From the IMG/VR virus record IMGVR_UViG_3300026484_000402, positions 1 through 64,000 of that record: a stretch of DNA of 64,000 bases; one strand, given 5' to 3'. Shown here in pieces: positions 3,274 to 52,451 of the stretch (position 1 is its first letter; each line of letters opens with the position of its first letter). Made by a program: the position numbers and the translations under genes. A model generated the notes under the pieces. It was not told where the DNA came from and did not search any database. It saw only the letters and a program-made list of their open reading frames with translations. This DNA comes from a virus.

Positions 3274-3972
3274 TTACGCATAGACGCTTTGCAGTGATGG
3301 TCTTCTTTGTAAAGAAGGTCTTGTTTGTAAAGAAGGTTTTTTGCCTTGATTTCTTAAAATTGATTTTATTTCACTTAGAGCTTTATATTTTTCTTGAGCT
3401 CTTTGTGAGATTTCAGATAACTCGTTTTTCATTTTACTTAGTTGCGTTTTAGAATATCCGTTTAACGGCTGAGGCTGATTATATAATCTTGCTGCATGCC
3501 TATATTTTTCGTACATAGTTTTTCCGTTTGGATTTAAAGACTTCAAACTTTTGGGAGCTCCTCTTAAAGACTGTCTATTCATATAGTTTAAGACTTTGCC
3601 TGTCCCACTTAATTCATGTAATACACTTTGAAGTGCTGCTGTTTTTTTAAGCTTCCTGCTTTTTCTTTTTAAATAAGAATAACCTTTTTGTGCCCCTATT
3701 GTACCTACTACACCAAGCCCTATTCCTGCTCCAACTTTTTTTGCTGTCCCTTGAGATGCTTCTTGAGTAACTTTTTTAAGTTTGTTCTTATAACTAGAAA
3801 TCTCTTTTGAATGTCTCAATCTTTCTTTTCTCACAAGGTCTAACGCTATCTTTTTACCGTCATCATCCAAAAGCTCTATAGGGTTTTTAAGGTTTTCAGG
3901 TCTTGCAGCTTTTACTGCTTTGTATATTTTAAAAGGGTTTACTGTGAAAGCTTTTTTATATAGTCCACTCAT
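3274..3972 (-). CDS. Basic glycine-zipper protein with K-x-A sites, putative internal virion protein
   Basis: GAGIGLGVVGTIG segment; KKA and KTA sites; C-terminal PSLQ x3. Confidence 0.6.
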   Translation of the reverse strand: MSGLYKKAFTVNPFKIYKAVKAARPENLKNPIELLDDDGKKIALDLVRKERLRHSKEISSYKNKLKKVTQEASQGTAKKVGAGIGLGVVGTIGAQKGYSYLKRKSRKLKKTAALQSVLHELSGTGKVLNYMNRQSLRGAPKSLKSLNPNGKTMYEKYRHAARLYNQPQPLNGYSKTQLSKMKNELSEISQRAQEKYKALSEIKSILRNQGKKPSLQTRPSLQRRPSLQSVYA

Positions 3973-4000
3973 TTGCTTCCTTTATAAAACTGGAAATGGA

Positions 4001-4987
4001 CTATTTGTCCTTATTTCCAGCTACTGCTTTATACGCTCCATAACCAACTGTTCCAACTCCAGCTGCAGTTCCTCCTATAGCAAGCGCTTGTCTTTTTCTA
4101 ATATTTTTCAATGATTTTTTTGTATTTTCAACATCTTTTAATTTTGCATGATATTTTTCTTGGAATTTTCTGATTAATGGGTCTTTTTTATCACGACCAG
4201 TCTCTCTAAGTTTTTTAAATGCTGCTGTTCCATCTTGCTCACCAGTTAAGAGTTTTGCTCTGTTATACATAACTTTTTTTGCTGCTTCTAAATTGTTTGT
4301 TTCTTTTGATAATCTACTTTTTACTTTATCTGCTCCTTTTCCTGTTAAAGCAGATTTGTAAGAATTCCAAGCGCCTTTCACTCTTCTCTTAATAGCCTTC
4401 CCTGCAGCGCCTATCACTCTATCTGCTAATCGCACTTCATTTTCAGATATTTTGGCTTCTTTTATAAGAGCTAAAGCTTCTTCAGGCAATAATCCAGTTT
4501 CAGCATAAATAGCTTCCGCAACTTTTTCTGCAAATTCGAGGTGCTCATCAGTATATCCAAGAGCAACTGCTTCACTAGCAACTTTTTCATCTACACTTCC
4601 ATCATCGTAAATAGATGACGCAAGGACCATAGCATCTTCAAAAGGCATTCCAGCTTCTTCAACATATATAGCATATTCTGCAACTTTATCCATCAAATCC
4701 TCTGCTCCTGCTGAAATTTCTTCAGCAACCTTAATCATATCTTCATCAACTCCACCAAGAAATTCTGCAACTTCAACAAGTGCTGCACTTTGTTCTGGAG
4801 TTAGTTCGTTTTCTACAACGCTTGCAACTTTTTCATTAAGAACATTCCCTTGCTCATCAGTTAAAGCAAGTGTAACAAGACCTCCTATAGGGTCAACTCC
4901 ATATGCTTCCAAATAATCCATTGCTTCAGCGACTTTTTCAATCATGTCTTCAGTCTGATAACCAGCTAGTTTTAATAAATTAGCCAT
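4001..4987 (-). CDS. Acidic KVA-repeat N-terminal region plus basic glycine-zipper C-terminus; putative processed head/ejection protein
   Basis: 8 K-x-A sites in the first ~180 aa; C-terminal LAIGGTAAGVGTVGYGAY; shares a domain with 39607..40245. Confidence 0.65.
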   Translation of the reverse strand: MANLLKLAGYQTEDMIEKVAEAMDYLEAYGVDPIGGLVTLALTDEQGNVLNEKVASVVENELTPEQSAALVEVAEFLGGVDEDMIKVAEEISAGAEDLMDKVAEYAIYVEEAGMPFEDAMVLASSIYDDGSVDEKVASEAVALGYTDEHLEFAEKVAEAIYAETGLLPEEALALIKEAKISENEVRLADRVIGAAGKAIKRRVKGAWNSYKSALTGKGADKVKSRLSKETNNLEAAKKVMYNRAKLLTGEQDGTAAFKKLRETGRDKKDPLIRKFQEKYHAKLKDVENTKKSLKNIRKRQALAIGGTAAGVGTVGYGAYKAVAGNKDK

Positions 4988-5048
4988 TTATTCTCCTTTG
5001 TTAGTTTTTATTTTTCTAATTGTATTCTAAAAAAAAAATATTGTCAAA

Positions 5049-6800
5049 TTATTGTTGAACATTTCCGTTTTGAGATTGTGTTTTTTGTTTCTGGTCTAAA
5101 AATTCCATTCTCCATTTTACGACCGCATATAAAACAGGATTTTCTTTAGAAAGTTCATCAAGTTTTGATTTTCTAACTCCGTAATCCATATTTTGAAGCT
5201 GCTGAACATAAGTGTCTGCTTCTTGAATAATTGCCGTTTGATTTATATTCCATGCGGAAGAGTTTTCCATCATTGATTCTTGTTTTATTTTATCTTCAAG
5301 CGAAGTAGCTACATCCTGTTGATACCTTTGTAATTCTAATTGTCTTCTTATATCCTCTTTCTGTTCTTCCATCATTCTTTCTTGCTCTTTATGATAATCT
5401 AAATCAAAAAAGTCAAGCGCTGTATGTCCAGAAACTTTTCCTGCTTGAAGAAGATTTAACATATTTTGCTTATCAGCTACATCATCAATAAGTTTTATAG
5501 GAACTAATTTAACTTTAATTTGTTCTTTATTTATTCTATTAGCTATTTGTTTTATAATAAAATTAGCTACCTGTTCTAAGGATTTAGTTAATTCTATTAA
5601 TTGATTTTGTAAAACTCTAAGCGAAGCACCTGCTCCTGAATAACTTAAACCTCCTTTTACAAACTCAGGCGGGACTCCTATAGCCGTCATAATCATAGTT
5701 GAGTACGCATCTATCTCTTGAGATAATTCAAGGTTTTTACCTTCACCAAATAAATTTATAGGCTCTAGCGGAATTGGGAAAAACTTAATAGCAGTAGGGT
5801 CTTTTTTCCAGCTTTTAAGCAAAGATTCAACCTTGTTTTTTAAATCACTGCCACCCATATAATTGTATATAGGCTGTTGGTCAACCCCCTGAACTCTCGG
5901 AACTAATCCACGTAATGGAAGTATCATATCTGAATATATCTTTTCATTCATCTTTCTTAACAACAACAATGAAATCATATCAGGTATAGCTGAAGTAAGC
6001 ATAGGAATACCCCACGATGTATTAGTTGAATTGAATTTTCTATTTCTGACATGCAAAACACTTGATTCGTTAAATTTTATTTTTCCATTAGTAAGAGAAG
6101 CTATTATTATATCTCTTGGTAAATTAAACAGCTTATCTTTATTTCCGTTTTTTATAAGCTCTTTATCTGATTCTGACGGATTATAATATATTGTTTTGAC
6201 ACCGGTTATTTCATCTTCATATAAATCTATATTATTTACAGGCCAAGATATTATTTTCATTTTAGATAAATCTTCTATTGGCCTATCCGATATTGTAAAA
6301 ACTGTTTCTTTTTTACATGCAGGACAAGTTCCCAAAAACACAAGCTCCTTGTTTCTAACTTCCGGCACAAGTTTTACATCTTCAACGTTTCTTCTCTTAA
6401 ATTTAGTTTCGCAAAATGAACAAGTTATAGTTCTGTCTATTGGAAAATTAACTGAGATAAACTGGTTTGCATATAAAAGAAAATTAAATCCTATTTCTTT
6501 TAATCTTTCTATAATTCCAACTTCATCTTCTAAAATACTTTTCCAGCTTAAAGCATCATCTTGTGATAATTCAGTTAAATCATTTGACAAATAAGAAAGA
6601 CTTGTGATTGAGATTGAAGCCATTTTATCTAATGCCGACTGAACCATTGGAACATTAGCTGTAATAAAATTAACCCATTTAAACACTTCTTTTATATCAT
6701 TAGGTAACACATACTGATATATTGAAGATAAATAATTGTACTTCTTTAAAAAACTAGTATCATAAAATTCAGTGTTTATCTTTGTGAAAGATGGTGTCAT
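5049..6800 (-). CDS. Phage portal protein with Zn-ribbon insertion
   Basis: 583 aa; VLHVR...WGIPML and AIGVPPEFVKGGLSYSGA portal-like motifs; CSFC...CPAC insertion. Confidence 0.75.
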   Translation of the reverse strand: MTPSFTKINTEFYDTSFLKKYNYLSSIYQYVLPNDIKEVFKWVNFITANVPMVQSALDKMASISITSLSYLSNDLTELSQDDALSWKSILEDEVGIIERLKEIGFNFLLYANQFISVNFPIDRTITCSFCETKFKRRNVEDVKLVPEVRNKELVFLGTCPACKKETVFTISDRPIEDLSKMKIISWPVNNIDLYEDEITGVKTIYYNPSESDKELIKNGNKDKLFNLPRDIIIASLTNGKIKFNESSVLHVRNRKFNSTNTSWGIPMLTSAIPDMISLLLLRKMNEKIYSDMILPLRGLVPRVQGVDQQPIYNYMGGSDLKNKVESLLKSWKKDPTAIKFFPIPLEPINLFGEGKNLELSQEIDAYSTMIMTAIGVPPEFVKGGLSYSGAGASLRVLQNQLIELTKSLEQVANFIIKQIANRINKEQIKVKLVPIKLIDDVADKQNMLNLLQAGKVSGHTALDFFDLDYHKEQERMMEEQKEDIRRQLELQRYQQDVATSLEDKIKQESMMENSSAWNINQTAIIQEADTYVQQLQNMDYGVRKSKLDELSKENPVLYAVVKWRMEFLDQKQKTQSQNGNVQQ

Positions 6801-6829
6801 TTCCGTCCTTTGTGTTTTCTTATTTTAAC

Positions 6830-6838
6830 ATTATATCA
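6830..6838 (-). promoter_or_regulatory. Extended -10 TGATATAAT upstream of the portal gene
   Basis: Perfect TGnTATAAT ~30 nt before the ATG, with AAAGG SD. Confidence 0.6.
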
Positions 6839-7741: not shown

Positions 7742-10234
7742 CTATATGCCTTCCAAATTAATTATAAAATCAGTCATTTTCTTAGATAACGCTTTTCCTT
7801 TATTTAAAAACGATGACAACATTCCATCACTAACACTATCAAGCATTTTATGGTAATTGCTATCTATAATCATAAGAACTCTAACCATGCCATTTACTCC
7901 ATCTTTAAGTTGCTCTATATAACTTTTTATAACTGCAACAGGCGTGTCAAGAGTTGCTAAATAACTTATAATAGCAGATTCTAAAACTTTTTTATCTGCT
8001 ATCTCTTTCAACTGTTCAAGCATCTCAGGGTCTATATTTTGTACCATAAAACCATTTTCATCCACTTCTGGAGTTTGCATATTATCATCAGCTTGATTAA
8101 CCTGCTGTTGAGCGCCTATGTCACCCTGTTGTTGCGCTTGAGGCATATCTTGCTGAGTTTGAGCATTAGGTTCTTGTTGCGCTTGAGGTATACCTTGCTG
8201 AATTTGAGCATTAGGTTCTTGTTGCGCTTGCTGCATTTGTTGTTCTTGTGGTTGGGCTCCCTGGGTTTGAGCAACATAATTATCAAGCTGAACTAGTAAA
8301 TCATCTAATGATAAACCTTGTTGTTGAGCAGCTTGAATTAACTGATTTGGGTCTTGCCCTATTTGTTGACACAATTCATTTATTTTATTTATTTTTTCTT
8401 GTTCATTAGGTTGAGCTTGTTGTTGGACCTGATTGTTGACATCAATATTTTGTTCTTCTTCAGATGGTTGTTGTCCAGCAATAGCTCCGGCGGTAGCAAA
8501 TTGTTGCAACGTTGAAGTTTGAATATCAATCGATTGTTTCATTTGAGCTATTAACATCATAAGTTGTTGCATTGTAAGTTGTTGCTGTTGAGCCATTTGA
8601 ATTAATTGCGCTATTTGTTCATTAAGTTGATATAACGGAGTAACAGTATCCGGTTGCTTTGCTGCTTCTTTAATTATTTTACATATTTCTTCTTCTTTAT
8701 AACCCTCGTTTGCAAGCTTAATAACAAAACCTTCTTTTGAATAAAATTCTCCATTGTATTCAATTTTCCCATCTCTTCTTTGAGTTACTTCTGCTGTTTT
8801 TGTAAGCATAAAATTGTTAATATCTTCACTTCTAAAAAAGTCGCATCTATTTCTTGAACAACTAAAAGCTTCTTCTTTCACAAAAAACGCATTATTTTTA
8901 GGTATATACAAAATATCATTATTTCTAATAATTCTTGTAATTTCATTATCAGGAACGACAACTATCTGTTTAATCGGACCAAAAGATTGTTCTATAACAA
9001 TTCTTCCATTTTTTAATTTAATTAATTCTCCAAACAAATATCTTATATAAGAAATTTCATTACCATTGTTGATTAATAAAAACCCACTTTTTTCAGAACT
9101 TGGATTTTCGTCAATCCATTTTTTTATATGGAGTTTTATAACAGAGCTTATACTCATACCGTATTCATCTTTTTTTATACCCATAATAGGATTATCACTT
9201 TTACCAGAGGTTACACAAACTTTTTCAGAAGACAACATCATCTTTTTATCTTCTCCAAACTTTGAAGCAACAATATACGTATATGGGTTTAATTCTTTGT
9301 CAAATAAAGTATATACACCAGAATCCGATACCTCAGTCAAATTTTTAAGAAACGACTCTTTAACTAAATCTTTAAGAGTAGGAGAATTAACTTCTGCAAC
9401 TTTGGTCAATACATCAGAATTTTTTATATAAAAACCTTGTGTTGCTATTTTTTTAAATGCTTTTTCTCTCTCATATTCAGGCAATGTTTTTATTTCGTCT
9501 TTTGTAAAATACACAACTGGTTTTTTATTTGCTGAAGCGACTTTTGAAATGTCAGACAATTTAGCATATCTTTCGATTTCTGAATAATCAGATACCATTT
9601 CAATCATTTTTTTTATATTTTCATTTTTAGAAGCTATTTTAACAATACTTTTTGCAAACTCTTTATCTTTAAAAGCCATATCACTCAACATTGATGATTC
9701 GTTATTTGAAGCAGTCTTATTAATTCCAGGAAGGCCGATTTGTTTGAACTTAAGAGTTTTGAAACCGCTTAAAACATCATCAAAATTTATTTCTTTAGAA
9801 AAATTATTGGATGCAACTTTAGGAGAGTATGTCATAGGTGTAGCAAATAAGCTCCCTATAATTCCTTTATCTATAGCTATCTCCCCTTCCTTATTTTTCA
9901 TATCTTCTTTTGTCAAAACCTGACCTATTGAATTTGAAATAGAATTGACAAGCTTGTTATATAAAAGTTTTGTAAGAGCATAATACCTACCAGTATTATC
10001 GTAACCTATATACGACACACAATCTACATTTCCATCTCTATAAATTATCGGAATAGTTAAATCTATTCCTGAAATAAGTAATTTAAAAGAACCTAAAGCT
10101 TCCGAACCATCTGGATTTATTTCATCCAGGCTATATTTAACAATAAATTGAGCAAAAGCTGGATAATTTGAAATAAGTTGTGAATAAGCTTCATCCAATA
10201 TGTTTTGTTTCATTACATTAATTTTAACGCCCAT
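7742..10234 (-). CDS. Large head-associated (core/scaffold-like) protein with K-x-A sites and Gln-rich region
   Basis: 830 aa; at least 9 K-x-A sites; long Q-rich low-complexity tract; near portal. Confidence 0.55.
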   Translation of the reverse strand: MGVKINVMKQNILDEAYSQLISNYPAFAQFIVKYSLDEINPDGSEALGSFKLLISGIDLTIPIIYRDGNVDCVSYIGYDNTGRYYALTKLLYNKLVNSISNSIGQVLTKEDMKNKEGEIAIDKGIIGSLFATPMTYSPKVASNNFSKEINFDDVLSGFKTLKFKQIGLPGINKTASNNESSMLSDMAFKDKEFAKSIVKIASKNENIKKMIEMVSDYSEIERYAKLSDISKVASANKKPVVYFTKDEIKTLPEYEREKAFKKIATQGFYIKNSDVLTKVAEVNSPTLKDLVKESFLKNLTEVSDSGVYTLFDKELNPYTYIVASKFGEDKKMMLSSEKVCVTSGKSDNPIMGIKKDEYGMSISSVIKLHIKKWIDENPSSEKSGFLLINNGNEISYIRYLFGELIKLKNGRIVIEQSFGPIKQIVVVPDNEITRIIRNNDILYIPKNNAFFVKEEAFSCSRNRCDFFRSEDINNFMLTKTAEVTQRRDGKIEYNGEFYSKEGFVIKLANEGYKEEEICKIIKEAAKQPDTVTPLYQLNEQIAQLIQMAQQQQLTMQQLMMLIAQMKQSIDIQTSTLQQFATAGAIAGQQPSEEEQNIDVNNQVQQQAQPNEQEKINKINELCQQIGQDPNQLIQAAQQQGLSLDDLLVQLDNYVAQTQGAQPQEQQMQQAQQEPNAQIQQGIPQAQQEPNAQTQQDMPQAQQQGDIGAQQQVNQADDNMQTPEVDENGFMVQNIDPEMLEQLKEIADKKVLESAIISYLATLDTPVAVIKSYIEQLKDGVNGMVRVLMIIDSNYHKMLDSVSDGMLSSFLNKGKALSKKMTDFIINLEGI
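8129..8230. repeat. 45-bp tandem repeat (~2.3 copies) encoding QAQQEPNAQxQQxxP
   Basis: GTTGCGCTTG at 8131, 8176 and 8221. Confidence 0.85.
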
Positions 10235-33639: not shown

Positions 33640-34185
33640 ATGGGAGCTTATAAAATAAAACAAAAAACAAAAAAACCAAAATATAACATATTCAATATAC
33701 CTAAAATTAAAACAAATATTGATTTAGCTAAATATGACCCTGTTACTGGAGAGAAAATAGCACTAGATTCCAATTTAAATAATTCCGAACAAAATGTAAC
33801 CGGGAATGTTCCAAGTGCGTTATCTGGGAGAAAACAGGCTGATAAAAATGATTATTACAATTTAAGAAAAATGAAAATGGAAACTATGGCAGATGCTCTT
33901 CAAAGCAGAAAACAACCGGTGGATTTATTTGAAGCTGTAAAAAATGGAACAGTAGGAACTACTGCAGGGGTTGCGATAGGAAATATCTTGAATACTTCTA
34001 ATAGAGCTAAAGGTTTGTTGGGTCTGGGACTTGGAGGCGCTATTGCTGCGATGGATGTTAATAGACAACTTAGAAAATATAATAATCAAATGGCTGCTAG
34101 AGAAGCTTTAATTGGACAGCCAACAGATAGGGAAAAAGCTTACATGAAATTATTGAGAGAAAAATATTCACAAGGTAAAAAATAA
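33640..34185 (+). CDS. Glycine-zipper putative internal virion protein
   Basis: EKIA site; GTVGTTAGVAIG and GLLGLGLGGAIA. Confidence 0.6.
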   Translation: MGAYKIKQKTKKPKYNIFNIPKIKTNIDLAKYDPVTGEKIALDSNLNNSEQNVTGNVPSALSGRKQADKNDYYNLRKMKMETMADALQSRKQPVDLFEAVKNGTVGTTAGVAIGNILNTSNRAKGLLGLGLGGAIAAMDVNRQLRKYNNQMAAREALIGQPTDREKAYMKLLREKYSQGKK

Positions 34186-34709
34186 TGGATATTTTTAATT
34201 ATTCAGACACAGATTATTCTGCGATTTTGTATAAAGATTTTTTTGTAATTTATATGAACTTAATAAAATCAAAACTTAGAGATAATAATATTGATGAAAA
34301 AATAGTTAGGCTCATAGATGCAGATACAATAAATGTTAATAGAGCGCCTTTGATAATCCTTAAAAGAACACATAGTCCACAACCTCCTACAGGAGCATTA
34401 TTAAATGAAAGGCTTAACACTATAAATAACAAAAATATAATTAACAGTGTTTCATACCAAATGTTTAATTTGTTGATAACTTGCTATGGAAACACATATC
34501 TAGAATCTGAAAGACTTGCCAGTTTAGTAATAGAGTCAATAATTCTTTCATCAATAAACAAAATTAGGGCTTTAAGTGAAAACAGAATTATAGGTCACGA
34601 ATTTTTAAATTGGTCAGAAACAGGGTTAGTGTCACAAGATACTAAATTATTTGCAAGTTCTATAGAAATAAGAATAAGCACAATGTTTGAAACATCAACA
34701 GTGTTATAA
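34185..34709 (+). CDS. Putative tail completion/terminator-like protein
   Basis: 174 aa; PLIILKR...ITCYG...SERLASLV pattern; structural context. Confidence 0.4.
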   Translation: MDIFNYSDTDYSAILYKDFFVIYMNLIKSKLRDNNIDEKIVRLIDADTINVNRAPLIILKRTHSPQPPTGALLNERLNTINNKNIINSVSYQMFNLLITCYGNTYLESERLASLVIESIILSSINKIRALSENRIIGHEFLNWSETGLVSQDTKLFASSIEIRISTMFETSTVL

Positions 34710-35657: not shown

Positions 35658-35887
35658 CGTGTGTAAGAATTGATAACATTGGGGTTATACAAGAAATAAC
35701 CAGATACATGAGAGAAAAAGTGTTTATTTGTAGAAAAAGATATGTTTGTTTAAAAGCTAAAGATTTTGCTACAGAAAAAGTATATTTAAACGAATTAATG
35801 GATATTTTGAGAAATACGCCAATAAAAACAACTTTTGAAATAATGTATAATTATATAAAAGATGAAGGAGAATGTAATGCTCACTAA
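35654..35887 (+). CDS. Small hypothetical protein
   Basis: Overlaps both neighbours. Confidence 0.5.
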   Translation: MTCVRIDNIGVIQEITRYMREKVFICRKRYVCLKAKDFATEKVYLNELMDILRNTPIKTTFEIMYNYIKDEGECNAH

Positions 35888-37178
35888 ATATATAGATGCA
35901 CAAATTGAATACGCTGAAGCAGAAAAAGAAATATGTCCCAATGGAATGTGCTCAATAGTAAAAACAGCTTCTGAAAGACCTGAGATTTTTAATGATATAA
36001 AAATTAAAAAAAATCACGCATATTTATATGTAATAGCTATGGGAGCTGGAGATTTTTATGGCGAAAACAAAAATGGAGACTTTTTTTGGGAAAAAGATTT
36101 AAAACAATATTACACTAAATTTTTAACATCAGGAGTATTTGTTCAACACGACAATAAAGACCCATCAAAAAGTATTGGTAAGGTTTTAAAAGCTATTTAT
36201 AACGATGAAATGCATAGAGTGGAACTACTTATAGAGATAAAAAAGGAATTAGCACCAGATATTTATTATTCTATTGAAAATGGAGAAAGAATAGCGGTTT
36301 CTATGGGAACCAAAGTTACCGAAGAACATTGCTCTTATTGTGGGCATGTCACAAAAGACAGTCTAGCAAACAGATGTGAGCATTTGAAATATATGATGCA
36401 TCAAATAATGCCTAATGGTGTAAGAGTTTTTGCTATAAACCATCCTCCTTTAAATTTCTTTGATATTTCTATAGTAAGAAGACCTGCTGATACTCAGGGG
36501 TATGCATTATTTCAAAAAGTAGCATCTGATAATAGTGAAAGGTTAATGCCCCAAAAAAAAGCTCTTTCTAAAATAGCAGAATTAAAAAAAAGAATAGATG
36601 CGTGGGCAGTATCAAATCCTCTCAACTATTCTGATATTAGAGAAATGAAACAAATACCTATGCCTATATTGAGTAATTTTATTAAAACAAATAATATTTT
36701 ATTAAGACCATCTGAGATAATAGGTTTATTAAGCAATATAGATGAATATACATATTCTTCTCTAACCAAGTATGACACTTTAAAAACAATGATTAGATTA
36801 TTGTCTTTATTGGAAGGGTGTGCACAACCACATATTGCTCCGGTTATTAAAATGGCCTCTGAAGACAGATATCCTGTTTTGAACAAATTAAAACATAGAG
36901 AAATATTAGTAAAAGAAGCTATGAATCAAATGGAATCGGAAAATATAGACGCTTTTGGAAATAAAAGAATAAAAATGAGAAAAAAACACAAAACCACTTC
37001 ATATCCATATAATGAATATGCTGGAATAAGAATAAATTTAAACAATGGAGATAGTGTAACAGTTCAAGAACATATATTTGACGATGTTTTTGAAGCCTTC
37101 AAAGACAGTGGAGCAATTGATTCAGTATATGGAATATTGCCTAATGGAACTGAGAAAATAATATCTATCCAAAGGTAA
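35877..37178 (+). CDS. Prohead (capsid maturation) protease, HK97/assemblin fold with Zn-finger insertion; start revised to MLTKY
   Basis: NKNGDFF, VQH (His), SIGKV, AVSMG (Ser), CSYC...CEH, FFDISIVRRPAD; AAGGAG SD. Confidence 0.8.
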   Translation: MLTKYIDAQIEYAEAEKEICPNGMCSIVKTASERPEIFNDIKIKKNHAYLYVIAMGAGDFYGENKNGDFFWEKDLKQYYTKFLTSGVFVQHDNKDPSKSIGKVLKAIYNDEMHRVELLIEIKKELAPDIYYSIENGERIAVSMGTKVTEEHCSYCGHVTKDSLANRCEHLKYMMHQIMPNGVRVFAINHPPLNFFDISIVRRPADTQGYALFQKVASDNSERLMPQKKALSKIAELKKRIDAWAVSNPLNYSDIREMKQIPMPILSNFIKTNNILLRPSEIIGLLSNIDEYTYSSLTKYDTLKTMIRLLSLLEGCAQPHIAPVIKMASEDRYPVLNKLKHREILVKEAMNQMESENIDAFGNKRIKMRKKHKTTSYPYNEYAGIRINLNNGDSVTVQEHIFDDVFEAFKDSGAIDSVYGILPNGTEKIISIQR

Positions 37179-39606: not shown

Positions 39607-40245
39607 ATGAGCTTTATAGAAAAAGTAGCTAGTTATTTTCAAACTTATGAAAATTCGTCAACTAAGGAAGGGTTGTTGAAAATAGCGGCTGAAGACGGGG
39701 TAACTGCCGATGACTTGGTTGCATTTCACAATTTAGTGTACGGTAATATTTTTACCGGCAAGAATCTCTTAAAAACAGCAAGCGAAAATCCTGAAAGTAA
39801 AATTATTGCTATAGGCATGGCATTTGACAAAGTTGCAAGTGGTGAAATGACCCCAGAAGAGGTTGTTGCTTACGCAAATGAACTAGGTATGACGAAAGAA
39901 GATGTTGATTTTATTTATGCACAAATTGAAAAACAAGCAGAAGAAGCTGGAATTATTGAACCAGAGGCAAATGAGTACGATGAAGATTTAACTGATAAAG
40001 TTGCAGAAGCAATGGATTATCTTGACGCAAACGGCATTGACCCTATAAGCGGGCTAATAATTGCTGCAAATGTTAATGAAGAAGGACTGATTGCTGACGA
40101 AAAAGTTGCTGAGGAAGCAGTTGAGGCTGGCTTTACAGAAGAGGACCTAACTAAAATTGCCGAAGTAGTTGATTTTCTAGGCGCTGTAGATGAAAAAGTT
40201 TTAGCTACTGCTGAAGCATTATTTGAAGCAGCGCATCAAGAATAA
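39607..40245 (+). CDS. Acidic K-x-A repeat protein (scaffold-like)
   Basis: 8 K-x-A sites; C-terminal domain paralogous to 4001..4987. Confidence 0.65.
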   Translation: MSFIEKVASYFQTYENSSTKEGLLKIAAEDGVTADDLVAFHNLVYGNIFTGKNLLKTASENPESKIIAIGMAFDKVASGEMTPEEVVAYANELGMTKEDVDFIYAQIEKQAEEAGIIEPEANEYDEDLTDKVAEAMDYLDANGIDPISGLIIAANVNEEGLIADEKVAEEAVEAGFTEEDLTKIAEVVDFLGAVDEKVLATAEALFEAAHQE

Positions 40246-43218: not shown

Positions 43219-46200
43219 ATGTATTCTCCGTTTGCGTATGACCCATATGAAACTACAGGAAGTTCTTACTATTCTCCTTTATCAGGCTATTTAGCTGCCC
43301 CTCATATATTTAATCCTTCCACATATGGACAATATGCCCCAGATACTATGGCTATGATGAGAACTCCTTACGGAGGGGCCTTTCAGACTCCTATGTCTAA
43401 TAATTATTATGCCGCTATGATTGCTCATCCATTTAAATCGTTCTTGACCTATAAAGTGCCTCTCTATATGGCTCCTGCTGGCTTAAATCCAGTTTTATTT
43501 GACACTTATGCTAACGAAGCTAAAGCTCAAGGGACAATTGGAACAGCAGGGTTTGTAGCAGGTAGCGGAATGTCGTTGGCTTTAGGCGCTGTAGGAGCTT
43601 CTTTTGCGGGTCCTATTGGTGGTATTGCCGGTTCTTTATTAGGAGAAGCACTTGGAAATACTATAATGGCTCCTCTTAATACTGCTGCCGGAAGAATTAT
43701 ACAAACGCATGAAGCAGCTAATTTGCTTAATGTAGCAGGGGCAGGAAAATATGGTTTTGGAATAAGTATGGGACAAGCAACTAAATTATATAAAGACTTT
43801 ACTGCCTCCGCCGTTGAACATCCTAGATTCTCACCAGAAGAACAACAATTAGCATTCAATGAATTAGCAAGAAATTCAATGATAGATGATAGCGGTGATT
43901 TTGGTGAGGTGGAAATGAATATTAAAAAAATGAAAAATGTTGTTGAGAAATTAAGAGATTTATTTAATGGAAGTATAAAGCAAACCATTCAAGCATTAAG
44001 GCAATTAAATTTATCAGGAATAAGTTCTGAAGATTTTGTTCATGTTACAGCAGCTGCAGGAGTTGCTGCAGCAAACAAAGGTCAAACCACAGCTGATTAT
44101 ATTAATAATACAGTAAACACTGCTCAAATAACATCTAATCAGACAGGTTTTTCAAAAGGAACAATGTTTGAAGTTAAAACAATGTTTGACTCAACTACAG
44201 ATATTGTTGGAAATGCTGTAAAACAGTTTTACAAAAAAGGATTATCAAACAAAGATAGAGTAGAAAAATTTCAACAAGATTTTATAAGAAGTATGTCGGC
44301 GTTAGGAATGAATGGAAATGTTTTATTGGCAAATAAAGCAATGTCTCCTCAACAATATGTTCTAACTGCGTTAGAAGCTGGTATACAGAAATACAATAAA
44401 GATGTTGGAGAACATTTAACATTAAGGGACGTAATTAATAATAAGCAACTTCAAGAAAAAATTATGAATAGATATGGAGTTAAAGAACTTCAGAAATTAG
44501 AACAGCAATATAATGGAGACTACAATAAAATATTTAATTATTTAGCAAACAAAGATAGTAGTTATTATTATGATGTATTGGATTTTCGTCGAACAGCTAA
44601 TGATGTAAAAAGAATAGACAGTAAAAAGGTCTTAAATCTTATAAGTAGTTATTTGCCCAATATGAGTAGTAAATTAAAAGATTTATTAGTTCATAAAAAA
44701 CTTGGAATGTTAAATCCGGAAGAGTATGACTCTACATTAAAATTGTTAGATATATATAACAATAATCCAGATTTGTTTGAAAAAATATTTAAAACAAGTG
44801 AACAAAGAACAGAAAAAGCTATAGCAAAAGATAGATGGCAAAGATTAAAAGCTGAAAATAGTTTTCAAGCAGTCTTTAGAAGAGTGAAATACAATTTTCA
44901 AAAAAGTATGGCAACTTTAGTTTCATGGATGCCTGGATTTGGTGAAGATGAAACATTCAAACCATTAAACACAAAAGTGGCGCAAGGAAAAATAGGTAAA
45001 TATTATAACGCATTGAATAAACTAGGTTCGGTAAAACTAGATGATATGTTAGTGCGTGGATATTTTCCTTCTTCTTTTGAAGGGAATGTGTTTAGCGCTT
45101 TAAGAAGAACGTTTGTTGGAAGTGAAGATGAAAGAGATGTAAGTAATAGAATGCAAGATTTATTAGGGGGACAATGGTTTTCTTACAATAAAGAGGACTT
45201 TCCGCATATATGGGCGGCTGCTAAACATAGAAGAAGAGCAATGGAACATATGTATCGTACTATCGATTCATGGTCTAAAGGAGATGAAGAAGCAACTTCC
45301 GTGTTGGCTGCATACTTTTCAAAGAAAAGAACAGAAGACGAAACGAATTCGGCTGTTACCAATATTGGAGCGACTGATGAATTTAAAAATTATTTTAAAA
45401 AATTAACACAGACAATAACAGAAATAAATAACGCTATTAAAGAGGCTAAAGCAAAAATAGGCGCATCACAATTTGAAGCTATGAATAGTGACGATGTTAG
45501 AGAAGGATTGCTTAAAAAATTAAACTTTAACGGTTCTTATGAAGAGATGATAGAAAAAGCGCACAGTGACAACAATTTAAAAAGTAAAATAATAAAAACA
45601 TATGAAAAAGCAGGATTAGACCAAAAACAAGCTAATGCGTTATTTGAATATGAATTTAATAGAGCAAAAAAACAAAAAACAATAAACGAAATGAAAACTA
45701 TATATACAGCTGATGAAGCGGGTATAGTTGGAGTTTTAAGGCAAATGGGATACAAGGGGGATATAAAATATGATGATATTAAAGACATATCTGAAGCATT
45801 ATCAGAAAACGCTATTTTTAGGAAAAAATTTACAGAATCTTTAATGAAAAGTAATCATATAAGCAAAGAAGCAGCTACCAAAGTAGTTAACTATTTAACT
45901 AAATACGGAGACAAAGACGCAAATATTAGAGCAGATGTGTTGTCATTTAATCAGATATCTCAAGAAGATTATATGGAAGTATTTAAGAAAGATAATATTG
46001 TTTCTAATATGTTTAAAAAGGGAGCGGCAATAGAGACGCTAAAAGCCATGCAAGCATATAAAAATAATTTTGAAGATTTTTATAAAGATATAAAATTCCT
46101 ACAAGAAAATGAAGAATTTAATGATTATTATGGAAGCAGCGAAAACTCTAAAAAAATAATGAATTTTATGATGTCAAGAGGACATTTTAACAATAAAGAA

Positions 46201-46707
46201 CAACTAGACGCAATAACTAAAGTATATACTTCTTTGAGAGATTATTTTGATAAGCATGGTAAATTAGATTTTAATGGACGTACCTATATGTCTTTTAAAG
46301 AATTTGTTGCAGATGAGCCTATGTTTAAATTATATACTAAAAAAATATTAAGTGCTGGATTTGCTTCTCAATTAAGTAAAAAACTTGGAATAGATGCTTA
46401 TGAGAATCCAGAAGATATTATGAAGTTAATAAAAGGCGCTTTTAAATATGATGAACAAACTGGTAAATTTACGCTTAAAAGCAAAGAAGAACTAGATAAA
46501 AATTTTAAAGATTTGCCGGCATTGTTAAAAAAATTGCACCTTGGAGAATCGTATGCTGATTTGGGAAGAATAGAAAGCCAATTAAATGGGGACAACAGTC
46601 TAAAACAGACAAATTCTTGGCTACAATCTATCTATAGAGTATTAGAAGAAATTAAAAATGGAGATGAAAAAAACTCAAAAATTAAAAATGATAATATAAA
46701 ACATTAA
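43219..46707 (+). CDS. Tape measure-like protein
   Basis: 1162 aa, mostly helical; Gly/Ala-rich hydrophobic stretch (GAVGASFAGPIGGIAGSLLG); near the frameshifting chaperone. Confidence 0.6.
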   Translation: MYSPFAYDPYETTGSSYYSPLSGYLAAPHIFNPSTYGQYAPDTMAMMRTPYGGAFQTPMSNNYYAAMIAHPFKSFLTYKVPLYMAPAGLNPVLFDTYANEAKAQGTIGTAGFVAGSGMSLALGAVGASFAGPIGGIAGSLLGEALGNTIMAPLNTAAGRIIQTHEAANLLNVAGAGKYGFGISMGQATKLYKDFTASAVEHPRFSPEEQQLAFNELARNSMIDDSGDFGEVEMNIKKMKNVVEKLRDLFNGSIKQTIQALRQLNLSGISSEDFVHVTAAAGVAAANKGQTTADYINNTVNTAQITSNQTGFSKGTMFEVKTMFDSTTDIVGNAVKQFYKKGLSNKDRVEKFQQDFIRSMSALGMNGNVLLANKAMSPQQYVLTALEAGIQKYNKDVGEHLTLRDVINNKQLQEKIMNRYGVKELQKLEQQYNGDYNKIFNYLANKDSSYYYDVLDFRRTANDVKRIDSKKVLNLISSYLPNMSSKLKDLLVHKKLGMLNPEEYDSTLKLLDIYNNNPDLFEKIFKTSEQRTEKAIAKDRWQRLKAENSFQAVFRRVKYNFQKSMATLVSWMPGFGEDETFKPLNTKVAQGKIGKYYNALNKLGSVKLDDMLVRGYFPSSFEGNVFSALRRTFVGSEDERDVSNRMQDLLGGQWFSYNKEDFPHIWAAAKHRRRAMEHMYRTIDSWSKGDEEATSVLAAYFSKKRTEDETNSAVTNIGATDEFKNYFKKLTQTITEINNAIKEAKAKIGASQFEAMNSDDVREGLLKKLNFNGSYEEMIEKAHSDNNLKSKIIKTYEKAGLDQKQANALFEYEFNRAKKQKTINEMKTIYTADEAGIVGVLRQMGYKGDIKYDDIKDISEALSENAIFRKKFTESLMKSNHISKEAATKVVNYLTKYGDKDANIRADVLSFNQISQEDYMEVFKKDNIVSNMFKKGAAIETLKAMQAYKNNFEDFYKDIKFLQENEEFNDYYGSSENSKKIMNFMMSRGHFNNKEQLDAITKVYTSLRDYFDKHGKLDFNGRTYMSFKEFVADEPMFKLYTKKILSAGFASQLSKKLGIDAYENPEDIMKLIKGAFKYDEQTGKFTLKSKEELDKNFKDLPALLKKLHLGESYADLGRIESQLNGDNSLKQTNSWLQSIYRVLEEIKNGDEKNSKIKNDNIKH

Positions 46708-47016: not shown

Positions 47017-47019
47017 AAA

Positions 47020-49683: not shown

Positions 49684-50443
49684 TTCTAGCATCGTTTGAA
49701 GGAATTATTTGAGCTGTTATTTGTGTTGATGTTCTAACTCCTCCAATAGATGCTTCATTAGCGTTTTTTATTTCAAAAAACTCTCTTGTTGTTAAATCAA
49801 ACATTATACTACCTAATACAAAATCAAGCCTACTAAATGTAGTATATATAGCTAAATTGTAAAAGGTAATACCTTTATCTGTAATTACTTGTTGTGATTG
49901 TGTTTTTATTCTTCTAGCTTTAAAATAAATAGGGATATAATGGTTAATTTGCCCTGTTCCATTACACATTGAACAATTGGTAGATATTCTTTGCCCCAGG
50001 TCATCATCATAGCATTCTGGGCACGGTTGACTTTCCAAATTCTTTACAAATAATGCGCATTCAGTTCCAGAAATCGACCAAAGTCTTTCAAAGTCGAACA
50101 TTAACTTATTTACTATTCCATATAAATCTTTTCTTCCTTTTGGTTCTAATTTAAACGCTGAAGATGTTTCTACAACTTTACCATCTTTTAATAATTCGAA
50201 ATAAAAATCTTTATAAAAGATAAAATCAAATTCAATCATATTTACTTCAACTTCATAAATATCATCATCTTTTTTTATCAAAATATTATTCTTGGATTTA
50301 TCATTAATCAAATCGTATGAATCCATTTCTATTGTTGTGTTTTCAGTTTTCATTTTTAGAACAATGGTGTCGTATTCAGAATCTGTAATTATCTTAAACT
50401 CAAGATTCCCTGCTGTAATTAGTAATATTTTAATATCAATCAT
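49655..50443 (-). CDS. Putative neck/head-closure protein with Zn ribbon
   Basis: CPEC...CSMCNGTG; structural context. Confidence 0.45.
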   Translation of the reverse strand: MIDIKILLITAGNLEFKIITDSEYDTIVLKMKTENTTIEMDSYDLINDKSKNNILIKKDDDIYEVEVNMIEFDFIFYKDFYFELLKDGKVVETSSAFKLEPKGRKDLYGIVNKLMFDFERLWSISGTECALFVKNLESQPCPECYDDDLGQRISTNCSMCNGTGQINHYIPIYFKARRIKTQSQQVITDKGITFYNLAIYTTFSRLDFVLGSIMFDLTTREFFEIKNANEASIGGVRTSTQITAQIIPSNDARIKPLFPLLK

Positions 50444-50883
50444 AATGAAATACTTTCATCATTATATTTTATTTCATTATTTGTAATTTCAATGTTGTCT
50501 TTGTTTTCTGGAGAAACAATCACATTATCTCTATAAATTGAAATAGTGCCCTCTATTTTATCTGTTTTATATTTTATATTAGAGATATTAGAAGCTGCAT
50601 TCACAATTAAAGGGGTTTCTGAAATTTTATTATTTAAATCTACAAAAAAACTATTAATTAATTTTATATTTTCATTTAAAATAGGAATTATGTTTTCTAT
50701 CCTGTCTATTTTTTTCAATTCTATTATAGGCATTTCAAATCCTTTTTCTTTTATCTTGTTAATATAATAATTTATTGACAACTCTATATCATCTAACATA
50801 GAATTAACACTGTTTAAACTTAAACTATCTATAGAATTTATTTTTTTAAAAAACACTTTTAATTCAGCTATTATTGATACCAC
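50440..50883 (-). CDS. Hypothetical protein
   Basis: Overlaps neighbours in the operon. Confidence 0.55.
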   Translation of the reverse strand: MVSIIAELKVFFKKINSIDSLSLNSVNSMLDDIELSINYYINKIKEKGFEMPIIELKKIDRIENIIPILNENIKLINSFFVDLNNKISETPLIVNAASNISNIKYKTDKIEGTISIYRDNVIVSPENKDNIEITNNEIKYNDESISL

Positions 50884-51484
50884 TATAATCCCTTAATACT
50901 TTAATATATGCTTGTTTCATTTTGTCTTGTAATTCTTTTCGCTTAGAATAATATGTGGTTTTTGGTAGTCCCGTATATTTGTATGCTTTTTCAGGGCTCA
51001 TATTTTGTGTAATTGTATGCAATATTTTTTCCTCATCCTTAGAAAGTCCATGCAATAAATCTTTTGGATTAATGTTTATTTTAGAAGTATCAACTCCATG
51101 CACAATAGCTACGTGCTGATTATTTTCAAGTATATTTTTTACTTTAGATTCAGGTATTTTTAATTTTTTTGCAATATCGTATGTTGTTGGAGTGATATGC
51201 TTATAAGTTTTCATTTCTTTATAGGTATTAATAACTTTATTTTCTAAACTTTTAGAATATTCCGTGGTTTTTACTAATCCTCCTTTTGCTTGAGCTGCCC
51301 TACTCATTTTATTCATATATGATGCTAAATGAGTTTGAAATTGAGATTTATTAGGGTCATAAGTTTTCACCGCCTGATTATACAGTCTCTCAATATGAAA
51401 ATCCAACATAGCAGGAGAAAAATGTCCCTCATATTTAGTCTTATAATAAGACAATAATTTGTTTTTTTGTTTTTCATCTAACAC
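50864..51484 (-). CDS. Sigma70-like phage sigma factor
   Basis: Region 2 AVKTYDPNKSQFQTHL; region 3 PTTYDIAKKLKIPESKVKNIL; region 4-like LSKDEEKIL...GLPKTT. Confidence 0.7.
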   Translation of the reverse strand: MLDEKQKNKLLSYYKTKYEGHFSPAMLDFHIERLYNQAVKTYDPNKSQFQTHLASYMNKMSRAAQAKGGLVKTTEYSKSLENKVINTYKEMKTYKHITPTTYDIAKKLKIPESKVKNILENNQHVAIVHGVDTSKININPKDLLHGLSKDEEKILHTITQNMSPEKAYKYTGLPKTTYYSKRKELQDKMKQAYIKVLRDYSGINNS

Positions 51485-51485
51485 T

Positions 51486-52451
51486 TTACATCCTTGTAGC
51501 TACATCTTTATATGATTCCATTTTGTTGCGGTTATGATATCTATCATATAATACTCCTCCCGTCAAACCAACACCTATTGTATCATATATCATATTACTT
51601 TTGTGTTTGTCTATTTCTTTTGTTAATTTTTTATAATCGGGATGACTTTCAGCTAATTCACCATAATCTTTTTTAAGCTGCTCTAAATTTTTCATAGCAC
51701 CTCTATACCTTTGAAAACTGGTTATAATTGGAACATATGAAGCTCTTTTTTGTATCATATTAGGAATATTAGCAACATCATCAATATATGGAGTATATTT
51801 TAAAGCAGGATTCATTGTATTCTTTTCATTTGTTTCTTTTTGTTGTTTTTTCTTATGTAAATAATATGAAATTGCAGGAATAGCAGACAATCCCAGACCA
51901 ATCAGGTTACTTCCTTTTAAAAATCTGCTAAATTTACTCATTTTTATAGTAGGGTTAAAAGCTTTAAATCCCTCCCCTATTTCTTTAACACCTCTTTTTA
52001 GATGTTCGGCAGGATTAAAGGCATGTTTTAGATTTTTAAATAATTCAGCCTTATGTTTAGAATTAATAATTTTTTTACCGGCATCCATTCCATGCATCAT
52101 AGCCCCAAACGAATATACACTTCCTGCAGCAGCTGGAGCATATATCATTCCTGCATGTAGCAAACTTGGTTTATCATCTTCTCTCATATATTTTTCTCTT
52201 AAAGCTTGTGATGCCTCATTCCCTGCATAAGAAGCTGCAGCTCCAGTTATACCTCCTGCAAATCCTCCAGCAAGCCCCCCTCCTATATTTTTAGCTATCC
52301 CCTTTATTTTACTTGTGTTTTTGTCTATTTTATCAAAAGCACTCATAGTGCCAGTAAGGGCGGTATTAATTAGTGTGTCATTTTTTATTTGCTCATATGG
52401 ATTTTTTTTATTTATTTGTTGTACATTATTATATTGTTGTATCTCTGACAT
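51486..52451 (-). CDS. Multi-glycine-zipper putative internal virion protein
   Basis: IGGGLAGGFAGGITGAAA, LIGLGLSAI and IGVGLTGGV; internal QKRAS site. Confidence 0.6.
   Translation of the reverse strand: MSEIQQYNNVQQINKKNPYEQIKNDTLINTALTGTMSAFDKIDKNTSKIKGIAKNIGGGLAGGFAGGITGAAASYAGNEASQALREKYMREDDKPSLLHAGMIYAPAAAGSVYSFGAMMHGMDAGKKIINSKHKAELFKNLKHAFNPAEHLKRGVKEIGEGFKAFNPTIKMSKFSRFLKGSNLIGLGLSAIPAISYYLHKKKQQKETNEKNTMNPALKYTPYIDDVANIPNMIQKRASYVPIITSFQRYRGAMKNLEQLKKDYGELAESHPDYKKLTKEIDKHKSNMIYDTIGVGLTGGVLYDRYHNRNKMESYKDVATRM

Follow-up and report, generated by a model that had tools for sequence, protein, structure and literature searches.

K-x-A motifs linked to a prohead-protease family mark candidate internal head proteins with glycine-zipper segments in an uncultivated phage

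Six proteins of an uncultivated phage, P0001–P0006, appear from their sequences to be internal head proteins that the prohead protease of the phage processes and that are perhaps ejected, a reading to which we give a probability of about 0.6. The source phage is ~176 kb in size and also encodes a multisubunit RNA polymerase (RNAP); the window analysed here is a stretch of 64,000 nucleotides (positions 1 to 64,000 of IMG/VR record IMGVR_UViG_3300026484_000402). All six ORFs singled out in an initial annotation, starting at 3274, 4001, 33070, 33640, 40326 and 51486, were present (Table 1), and each was full-length in a 176-kb relative at 70–90% amino-acid identity. As had been noted, signal peptides are absent, with an N-terminal hydrophobic segment in 0/6. 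Most of what that annotation had observed was real and was confirmed in part, with several points corrected below; its interpretation was supported in part, K-x-A proving to be tied to the prohead-protease family, whereas the view of the six as a single family was not supported.

Organization and relationships of the six genes

The six genes had been described as dispersed, which overstated the case. P0001 and P0002 adjoin each other just downstream of the portal gene, which lies directly upstream of P0002 and P0001 in transcription order, P0003 and P0004 are neighbours near the protease, and P0005 lies within the same head module; P0003, P0004 and P0005 are all less than 5 kb from the protease. 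Homologues of P0003 abut the protease in loci L010 and L011 and in the cultured phage Arash, and in the relatives L002–L005 the homologue of the 62966 protein comes straight after the syntenic trio of P0003, P0004 and gp34185. The portal assignment itself rests on a match to Arash gp204 (Table 1).

Nor did the six form one homologous family. No pair among them gave E < 0.1 in blastp, and each has a separate set of homologues. The sole paralogy was between the N-terminus of P0002 and the acidic 39607 protein (blastp, E 9e-18), and the similarity between the leaders of P0001 and P0004 was marginal (p=0.03). By these comparisons the six proteins are at least five unrelated lineages which have an architecture, and not an ancestry, in common.

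Table 1. Positions of the proteins discussed, numbered from the first nucleotide of the window
Protein	Coordinates	Strand	Description
P0001	3274..3972	-	232 aa; lineage-specific orphan
P0002	4001..4987	-	328 aa
Portal protein	5049..6800	-	Matches Arash gp204, which is annotated as portal, at E 4e-58
830-aa protein	7742..10234	-	Six strict sites (139-278 and 479); probable substrate
P0003	33070..33630	+	186 aa; homologue of Arash gp221
P0004	33640..34185	+	181 aa; syntenic with P0003 and gp34185
174-aa globular protein (gp34185), conserved	34185..34709	+	Without K-x-A; third of the P0003-P0004 syntenic trio
Prohead (head maturation) protease	35862..37178	+	Presumed enzyme for the K-x-A sites
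Acidic 212-aa protein	39607..40245	+	Six strict sites; paralogue of P0002 pro-region; scaffold/core-like candidate substrate
P0005	40326..41288	+	320 aa; architecture like Arash gp220
1162-aa protein	43219..46707	+	Gly-zipper 105-131; without N-terminal K-x-A leader
P0006	51486..52451	-	321 aa, basic
Acidic 109-aa protein	62966..63295	-	Six K-x-A

The K-x-A motif and the prohead protease

Computation showed the motif to be real and specific, to track the protease family and to be conserved in position. The plain form K-x-A, by which the proteins had been grouped, was barely enriched (166 vs 131, z 3.3), whereas K-[VILTM]-A-[S/E], hereafter the strict motif, was strongly so, with 37 sites observed against 5.7 expected (z 13.7); the reversed motif, K-x-G, K-x-S and R-x-A, used as controls, showed no enrichment. 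The strict sites were concentrated in 15 proteins compared with ~28 expected, and the commonest form of the site in the set was [L/I/M]-x-K-[V/I/T/L/M]-A-[S/E/A/G]. Enrichment recurred in 19 of 20 loci with a related protease (z 4.8–17; z 2.1 in the remaining locus, L020), as well as around gp222 of Arash and around gp19 of phage G (27 vs 8.4, z 7.1).

The Lys and the Ala are 80–100% conserved, compared with 20–50% for the middle residue and the flanks, and sites keep their positions within variable sequence: K30 in 24/24 members of the P0003 family (K48 in 20/24), K39 in 5/5 for P0004, K23, K85 and K216 in 6/6 at ~30% identity for P0005, and K235 in 14/15 for P0006. Strict sites are absent from P0001, P0004 and P0006, yet P0004 and P0006 have one positionally conserved K-x-A apiece. 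A motif at a conserved position was thus found in P0003–P0006; P0002 was counted with them on its six strict sites and its paralogy, and for P0001 and P0002 only close relatives are available, so that site conservation is uninformative there. The lone site of the portal protein, K59-M-A-S, reads K-[L/M]-S-S in distant orthologues, which shows that not every single site is meaningful. Overall, these sequence patterns indicate that K-x-A is a short linear motif in its behaviour, conserved and linked to the prohead-protease family.

The protease itself has conserved K-x-A sites at 34, 219, 237, 330 and 351, flanking its catalytic domain. Two of these, K34/A36 and K219/A221, bracket the domain and are invariant in 19 protease sequences of 40–89% identity, and K330/A332 forms a conserved island inside an otherwise unalignable linker. 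From the enrichment of the motif and its placement within the protease, we infer that K-x-A is the cleavage motif of this enzyme. The protease gave no sequence match to solved proteases, as it has diverged too far to be matched in Pfam or the PDB, and the bond that it would cut can therefore only be guessed. A literature search found no paper on a K-x-A protease specificity. The motif is very clean and unlike the Glu-cutting codes, and marks probable substrates across an uncultivated clade of 150–190 kb phages, and the same code is apparently present in two phages that are in culture, Arash and G. Head-internal cargo can therefore be flagged computationally by the motif, which is useful in genomes with ~80% of their genes unannotated.

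Architecture of the six proteins

A flip in composition, from acidic or charged helical sequence to basic Gly/Ala-rich sequence after the last K-x-A, had been proposed for P0002, P0003 and P0005. It was clearest in P0002, in which an acidic pro-region (residues 1–157/178), whose net charge is -30 to -34 and which holds six strict K-V-A-[S/E] sites, gives way to basic sequence (net -30, pI 4.1 to net +19, pI 10.0). This pro-region is better conserved than the basic middle section, which diverges, and a Gly-zipper at the C-terminus (301–319) is conserved. In P0005, the flip from -7 to +7 also held: the first 248 aa are helical and mildly acidic with 14 K-x-A, and the remaining 72 aa form a basic tail rich in Gly, Ala and Lys (pI 11.1, 32% G+A), which differs in length among orthologues. 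In P0003 the flip held weakly (-3 to +4); its leader has K-x-A at the conserved positions K10, K30 and K48, and downstream of it are a Gly-zipper helix (60–78) and then a conserved helical domain (~90–165). In all three proteins, the part before the last K-x-A looks, from its sequence, like a disposable pro-region.

The basic leader of P0004 ends in a conserved D-P-V-T-G-E-K-I-A and is followed by a variable linker, Gly-rich apolar runs at 103–114 and 125–138, and a conserved C-terminal helix. As a candidate P22_gp7 protein (PF25688), P0004 was rejected: it scored 22.5 bits against a cutoff of 28, with matches in only 2/5 family members, and a P0004-family profile searched against the PDB retrieved no P22 gp7 chain.

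P0001 and P0006 had been viewed as two-module polyproteins split by KTA and KRA respectively. P0001 is very basic throughout (net +35), with a basic leader ending in G-K-K-I-A-L-D (residues 39–45), a Gly-zipper at 80–94, the KTA at 110–112 and PSLQ repeats at its C-terminus; its Atlas model has a pLDDT of 0.45. All its relatives are of >77% identity, so that the KTA split is not assessable. For P0006 the proposed split was borne out, as K235 lies at a module boundary, a single conserved K-x-A-[A/S]-Y-x-P with a variable linker before it and the C-terminal module after it; the identity of its flanks is 0.22 and the site falls in a low-pLDDT linker of the structure model. Four Gly-rich apolar segments are conserved in P0006, at 53–76, 97–125, 181–198 and 291–302.

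Hydrophobic GxxxG segments had been ascribed to all six. Gly/Ala-rich apolar runs, defined as at least 12 aa with at least 3 Gly, were found in P0001–P0004 and P0006; the G/A-rich basic tail of P0005 is interrupted by Lys and Arg and holds no hydrophobic Gly-zipper. Such runs occur in 8 of the 95 proteins of the contig compared with 0.73 expected after shuffling (maximum 3). Strict GxxxG counts were above chance only in P0006 (p=0.002) and in the 75792 protein (p=0.03), and marginally so in P0001. Zipper registers of (G/A/S)xxx(G/A/S) with three or more repeats were present, P0005 again excepted, and registers with at least 3 Gly were seen in P0001, P0006, and the 43219 and 75792 proteins. These last two had escaped the initial annotation: the 75792 protein (75792–76043, beyond the window) has the same architecture as the six, and the 43219 protein, with its zipper, is probably of a different class (cf. 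Arash gp4).

The 19-residue Kyte–Doolittle maximum of the zipper segments was 1.0–1.4, compared with 2.3–2.9 for true transmembrane (TM) helices of the same contig. A hydrophobicity below the usual TM threshold fits conditional insertion after oligomerization but fits no insertion as well; judged from composition, it would allow a life that is first soluble and then membrane-active, and proves nothing. Structure models of P0003 and P0006 (AF2, pLDDT 57, low confidence) gave no match, known pore formers included. The probable substrates include a recurrent, convergent design of leader plus glycine-zipper.

Cultured relatives and known systems

P0003 is a homologue of Arash gp221 (E 1e-9), which was detected by MS in Arash virion preparations with 8 peptides and 355 spectra, as were gp220, gp224 and gp213, along with RNAP subunits (PMC10585845). 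This proteome is permissive, since it lists 116 proteins, ribonucleotide reductases included (PMC10585845). Arash gp220 mirrors P0005, with ten K-x-A and then a basic G/A tail, and gp213 and gp224 mirror P0004 and P0006, with a K-x-A leader and multiple zippers; all four sit beside the homologous protease. Apart from gp221, the similarity of these look-alikes to the window proteins is marginal (E 0.002–0.006 in a 95-protein database). They are annotated only as ‘structural protein’, and their function, processing and motif are undescribed (PMC10585845). The 7742 protein is a homologue of the abundant Arash virion protein gp218, the Arash major capsid protein (MCP) has LVKEA|GA at residue 27, and the phage G portal has a K-x-A site near its N-terminus. 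Both Arash and phage G can be cultured, which makes the prediction directly testable.

By analogy, the processing of internal head proteins proposed here is most likely a variant of what T4 and phiKZ show. In T4, small basic internal proteins have short N-terminal leaders that are removed by the gp21 prohead protease, the acidic scaffold is cut to peptides, and the internal proteins are ejected alongside the DNA. The T4 core (gp21; gp22, gp67, gp68, IPI–III, Alt; capsid-targeting sequences) thus resembles the present set in its small basic proteins with short leaders. However, T4 cuts after Glu in L/I-x-E and not at K-x-A, and its internal proteins (IPs) are soluble and without Gly-zippers. 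Podovirus ejection proteins (P22 gp7/gp20/gp16; T7 gp14/gp15/gp16) leave the capsid and build a trans-envelope channel, P22 gp7 losing an N-terminal leader; as head-internal proteins with hydrophobic segments, they were the model behind the initial interpretation, although Arash is a myovirus, where the conduit is usually made by the tail tube and tape measure. Herpesvirus assemblin cuts (V/L)-x-A|S, and its self-cleavage sites flank its catalytic domain. As a capsid maturation protease with P1 Ala and P1′ Ser, it shows the same pattern as the motif here, in which, unlike in assemblin, the invariant residue is Lys at P3.

To our knowledge, prohead-protease processing of internal head or ejection proteins is described only for T4, phiKZ, 201phi2-1 and SPN3US, all of which cut after Glu. 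The phiKZ-like giants (phiKZ gp86 and gp93, among others; 201phi2-1; SPN3US gp47, gp53 and gp54) are, as here, large phages with a virion-type multisubunit RNAP. They use one S80 prohead protease and a short linear motif for many head substrates, for which the parallel here is presumptive, and the several sites in their pro-regions, so that fragments clear the capsid, and the self-processing of the protease are likewise comparable. In phiKZ, 201phi2-1 and SPN3US, the MCP, portal and ejection proteins are processed at S/A/G-X-E, in contrast with K-x-A(-S/E) here, and the propeptides hold extra sites; at least one of the processed ejection proteins, SPN3US gp47, is predicted to have a TM helix (PMC5694885). 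A PHROG search gave no matches for the six proteins, none of which is homologous to phiKZ proteins, and Gly-zipper modules were not found described for inner-body proteins in a literature search.

As we envisage it, the pro-regions would build the proteins into the prohead: in P0002 a copy of the scaffold-like 39607 protein, in P0005 the long helical region, and in P0001, P0003 and P0004 a short leader. The protease would then cut at K-x-A; if assemblin-type proteases are a guide, the bond cut is probably the one following Ala. Multi-site pro-regions would yield small peptides, which exit the capsid, and the basic Gly-zipper parts would remain within the DNA-filled head; P0006, cut once, would give a 237-aa piece with three zippers and an 84-aa piece with one. 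The steps that we infer are the cleavage, a place inside the head, and delivery along with the DNA. As a last step, the zipper helices may oligomerize in the membrane of the host, which is a plausible extension. Should they be ejected, these proteins would be the leading candidates for components that interact with membranes early in infection, in phages which inject an RNA polymerase of their own.

A possible but rather doubtful alternative is that P0002, P0005, the 39607 and 62966 proteins, and perhaps P0003 and P0004, serve as core or scaffold in assembly only, being processed or degraded at maturation without membrane insertion, with the basic Gly/Ala-rich parts acting inside the capsid, for example in core oligomerization, in portal or shell contact, or in neutralizing DNA charge. 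There are precedents in T4 gp22, gp67, gp68 and the IPs (PMC5694885). Such a role would suit P0005, a head-module protein whose long helical part is rich in K-x-A and whose tail is basic and not hydrophobic, the paralogy of the P0002 pro-region with an acidic scaffold-like protein, the charge of P0001, as expected of a DNA-binding internal protein, and the sub-TM hydrophobicity of the zippers. However, Gly-zipper runs occur in far more proteins than chance would give (8 vs 0.7) and are conserved, for instance fully between P0006 orthologues and at the C-terminus of P0002. Moreover, the conserved helical domains past the sites in P0003 and P0006 imply a function after cleavage, and in phages of this kind the virion holds an RNAP (Arash MS), which has to be ejected.

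An unlikely, more far-reaching version of the processed-and-ejected reading concerns the RNAP-packaging clade as a whole, of which Arash and phage G are the cultured outliers: it would load and release a dedicated, conditionally membrane-active zipper set through an undescribed K-x-A|S code. The zipper proteins would be soluble while encapsidated, leave the head together with the DNA and RNAP, and oligomerize in the host inner membrane, forming a DNA/protein conduit or the seed of a Chimalliviridae-like early-infection vesicle. Which phage proteins anchor in or build that vesicle is an open question (PMC13282480), and if true this version identifies phage-encoded membrane components of early-infection compartments.

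Quite improbable, in our view, is that K-x-A is a docking or helix motif, bound for example by the portal, the capsid interior, the protease or a phage GroEL, which recruits proteins into the prohead without proteolysis. Many sites do lie in predicted helices (e.g. P0003 K10 and K30), and K-x-A repeats are regular in the acidic proteins. Nevertheless, sites bracket the catalytic domain of the protease like the autoprocessing sites of T4 and phiKZ-type enzymes (PMC5694885), the Arash MCP and the phage G portal each have a site close to the N-terminus, enrichment tracks the protease family across otherwise unrelated gene sets, and a small residue at P1 with Ser at P1′ agrees with assemblin-type specificity. 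Least probable is a role as membrane proteins of the producing cell (for example in lysis, superinfection exclusion or membrane-associated assembly) outside the virion and with incidental K-x-A, for although Gly-zipper helices are typical of membrane oligomers and P0006 has weak neighbours in the Atlas that are bacterial proteins without a name, the six lack signal peptides and TM-level hydrophobicity, their K-x-A positions are conserved, their genes lie among portal, protease and scaffold-like genes, and the Arash counterparts were detected in virion preparations.

Protease family and the K-x-A motif

The window covers the initial 64 kb of a virus contig that is 80,340 bp long and has ~29% G+C; besides the features collected in the table, the window encodes GroEL, a primase, DnaB and a Rep protein. 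The closest relative was a 176.6-kb IMG/VR contig, IMGVR_UViG_3300028534_000013, rated complete by CheckV, with a protease 89% identical to that of the window, and we therefore take the contig to be a fragment of a ~176-kb phage. No GenBank phage was matched by Megablast with a 20-kb query.

Features of the contig, with Arash proteins of the same architectural type or matched by sequence
Feature	Position	Strand	Assignment	Arash
P0001	3274-3972	-	Probably type B	gp221, gp213
P0002	4001-4987	-	Type A: long multi-site pro-region, then basic G/A-rich C-terminus	gp220
Portal	5049-6800		Portal	gp204 (E 4e-58)
RNA polymerase piece	30448-32187		Beta piece, phiKZ/AR9-type	
P0003	33070-33630	+	Type B: short leader, then zipper helix, then helical domain	gp221, gp213
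P0004	33640-34185	+	Type B	gp221, gp213
gp34185	34185-34709	+	174-aa protein	
Protease	35862-37178	+	Head maturation protease (phrog_18299, phrog_2774)	gp222
39607 protein	39607-40245	+	Acidic, 212 aa	
P0005	40326-41288	+	Type A	gp220
1162-aa protein	43219-46707			
Sigma-like gene	50864-51484		Pfam Sigma70_r3	
P0006	51486-52451	-	Type C: multi-zipper protein, internal site	gp224
75424 product (outside window)	75424-75723		Small gene	
75792 product (outside window)	75792-76043		Small gene, 83 aa; type B	gp221, gp213
77383 product (outside window)	77383-78399			

Among the contig proteins, plain K-x-A was barely enriched (166 observed against 131 expected), and the stricter form K-[VILTM]-A-[S/E] reached 37 occurrences, with 5.7 expected (z 13.7), with the reversed motif, K-x-G, K-x-S and R-x-A all at chance. 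The strict sites were clustered, being confined to 15 proteins where ~28 were expected. Of 20 IMG/VR loci encoding a related protease, gathered with the protease alignment, 19 were enriched in the motif (z 4.8-17), down to 38% protease identity; the exception was a locus of 64% G+C (z only 2.1). Enrichment was also found around gp222, the protease of the cultured Salmonella phage Arash, and around gp19 of Bacillus phage G (K-x-A-[SAGE], 27 against 8.4 expected, z 7.1); in a high-GC mycobacteriophage [K/R]-x-A alone was enriched, weakly. These patterns, together with the site placement in the protease described below, suggest, with a probability of roughly 80%, that this protease family uses K-x-A as its processing motif. 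Assemblin cleaves at V/L-x-A|S, and by analogy the scissile bond would lie after the Ala.

About 70 homologs of the protease were found on uncultivated contigs of 150-190 kb, and its catalytic domain matched Arash gp222 (40%), Vibrio phages D181/D148/D69, phage G gp19 and cluster C mycobacteriophages among cultured phages. The catalytic domain is bracketed by K34/A36 and K219/A221, which showed no variation among 19 sequences (40-89% identity), and K237, K330 and K351 were 89-100% conserved within linkers whose flank identity was 29-39%. This placement matches the pattern of autoprocessing sites in T4- and phiKZ-type prohead proteases (PMC5694885). A search of the protease profile against PDB sequences for the gp21/assemblin fold gave no match. 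An invariant C-x2-C ... C-x-H cluster at residues ~157-174 (C157, C160, C172 and H174) looks like a zinc-binding insert in the catalytic domain. Several homologs of 600+ aa (P0049 and P0052-P0055) carry intein/LAGLIDADG Pfam domains, and their protease genes are therefore intein-interrupted.

In phage G (JN638751.1, 5137-29706), K-x-A marks the portal gp14 (MAKQA|AS at 18), gp7 and gp11, and the protease gp19 itself has LEKVAS at 248 and LLKIAS at 274. In Arash it marks gp220, gp223, gp225 and the MCP gp226, the last with LVKEA|GA at residues 25-31 (K-x-A at 27). No mention of a K-x-A code in either phage was found in the literature searched.

Architecture of the six proteins

The initial annotation had treated P0001-P0006 as one family of K-x-A leader plus Gly-zipper proteins. 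Its six ORFs were borne out, all being conserved full-length in the 176-kb relative, and the proposed lack of signal peptides agreed with the finding that none of the six has an N-terminal hydrophobic segment. The single family did not hold: blastp gave no significant pair among the six and their homolog sets were separate. The features that they have in common are a convergent architecture of three types. The six were also scanned against PHROG and Pfam; the only hit, P22_gp7 for P0004, was sub-threshold, and this assignment was rejected after failing family-wide and PDB-profile tests.

Gly/Ala-rich apolar runs were present in eight of the 95 contig proteins (0.73 expected after shuffling): P0001-P0004, P0006, the portal, where the run is probably irrelevant, the 1162-aa protein and the 75792 product. 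Five of the six proposed zipper proteins thus have such runs, and P0005 fails the test because Lys and Arg break up its basic G/A-rich tail. The suggested flip from acidic or charged to basic sequence held for P0002 (net charge -30 to +19) and P0005 (-7 to +7), and modestly for P0003 (-3 to +4); P0001, P0004 and P0006 are basic over their whole length. The zipper segments were weakly hydrophobic, with a 19-residue Kyte-Doolittle maximum of 1.0-1.4 compared with 2.3-2.9 for the real transmembrane helices of the contig.

Type A is represented by P0002 and P0005. Six strict sites lie in the acidic region of P0002 (residues 1-175), which is paralogous to the 39607 protein (E 9e-18); between close relatives, the pro-region and C-terminal zipper of P0002 are conserved and its basic middle section has diverged, with indels. 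P0005 had orthologs in all five relatives at ~30% identity, with K23, K85 and K216 retained in 6/6 sequences and a basic G/A/K tail of differing length.

The family of the type B protein P0003 (24 members, with identity falling to 15%) shares a K-x-A leader, after which come a Gly-zipper helix and a helical domain that is conserved. K30-x-A32 was present in all 24, K48 in 20 and K10 in 14, with a flank identity of just 18-28%, and homologs adjoin the protease in two IMG/VR loci (L010 and L011) and in Arash (gp221, E 1e-9). The AF2 model of the family was all-helical with low confidence (pLDDT 57.5, reaching 73-82 at residues 90-150 only). In P0004, the site D-P-V-T-G-[E/D]-K-[I/V]-A was conserved in 5/5 sequences; after it come a linker that varies, the Gly-rich runs and, at the C-terminus, a conserved helix. 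P0004's synteny with P0003 and gp34185 was kept in all relatives at 45% identity. The relatives of P0001, an extremely basic protein (net charge +35), are all >77% identical. The end of its leader, G-K-K-I-A-L-D, resembles G-E-K-I-A-L-D of P0004; a common capsid-targeting sequence was considered and rejected, the overall similarity being only marginal (p=0.03).

Both the 75424 and 75792 products start with MLYKIA, which the P0001 N-terminus M-S-G-L-Y-K-K-A resembles. The 75792 product ends in the Gly-zipper SGIAGVIGGIAGS and therefore belongs to the leader-plus-zipper class; the 77383 product has IYKIAS at residue 21. The C-terminus of P0001 (3274-3330) carries tandem K/R-P-S-L-Q repeats, KKPSLQTRPSLQRRPSLQ, with one copy number in the window and another in the 176-kb relative.

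In the type C protein P0006, exhaustive HMMER searching gave 15 family representatives, 14 of which have K235-x-A-[A/S]-Y-x-P at the junction of a variable low-complexity linker and the C-terminal module. The site lies in a low-pLDDT stretch of an all-helical AF2 model (pLDDT 57.2), and for these reasons the proposed KRA split of P0006 is supported; conservation of K142-H-A was not found in the family. Foldseek searches with the P0003 and P0006 models against BFVD and PDB gave nothing at E <0.001, just generic helical bundles/GPCRs (TM ~0.2). In the ESM Atlas, P0006 and P0001 scored below 0.9 only, all with unnamed clusters. The clusters nearest P0006, at scores of 0.85-0.86 that fall short of the reliable range, contain unnamed proteins from Candidatus Melainabacteria bins, a weak lead to host or prophage-like relatives.

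Genomic placement, virion evidence and proposed role

P0002 and then P0001 directly follow the portal gene, and genes 7742 and 6836 encode homologs of Arash gp218 and gp219. The portal had been considered as an MCP on account of its K59-M-A-S and was reassigned by its match to Arash gp204; in distant orthologs this site is K-[L/M]-S-S rather than K-x-A. Residues ~130-190 of the portal form a Cys4 zinc-ribbon-like insert (C-x2-C ... C-x2-C), with a middle of ~20 to ~60 residues among orthologs. A phmmer search with the Arash MCP gave no credible match on the 80-kb fragment, and the MCP gene may lie off it. P0006 adjoins the sigma-like gene directly downstream of it, and the otherwise unannotated block around this gene probably contains structural genes; in Arash, the sigma factor (gp10) and RNAP subunits are among the virion-detected proteins (PMC10585845).

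LC-MS/MS of Arash virion preparations detected gp213, gp220, gp221, gp222, gp223, gp224, gp225 and gp226, within a list of 116 proteins that includes ribonucleotide reductases and with coverage values that cannot reveal processing (PMC10585845). All eight have K-x-A sites, and gp213, gp220, gp221 and gp224 have the leader-plus-zipper or basic-tail architecture.

The best-supported model for these proteins follows the T4/phiKZ paradigm and uses a new motif: pro-regions would carry the proteins into the prohead core, where the protease would cut at K-x-A; multi-site pro-regions would become peptides that escape, and the basic zipper-bearing parts would stay with the DNA. From there these parts may go on to be ejected and to act on membranes. 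The low hydrophobicity of the zippers would let them remain soluble in the capsid. It is also compatible with the main rival, a role in assembly only, through core oligomerisation or DNA neutralisation, which we regard as the less probable reading. That K-x-A is a non-proteolytic docking motif, set against its enrichment along with the protease family and its placement around the protease catalytic domain, is unlikely, and a role in the membrane of the producer cell is very improbable.

Arash and phage G are in culture, and processing at K-x-A, as predicted by the T4/phiKZ-type model, can be tested in them directly. A literature search, with most subscription journals outside its scope, found neither a K-x-A prohead-protease specificity nor Gly-zipper ejection proteins, and both would provisionally be new.

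The 1162-aa protein lacks a K-x-A leader and carries a Gly-zipper of 27 residues (105-131), and Arash gp4 (1097 aa, second in virion MS abundance) has an even longer one near its N-terminus. Sequence homology between the two was sought and none was detected; the 1162-aa protein may be tape-measure-like or a tail-associated membrane-active protein.
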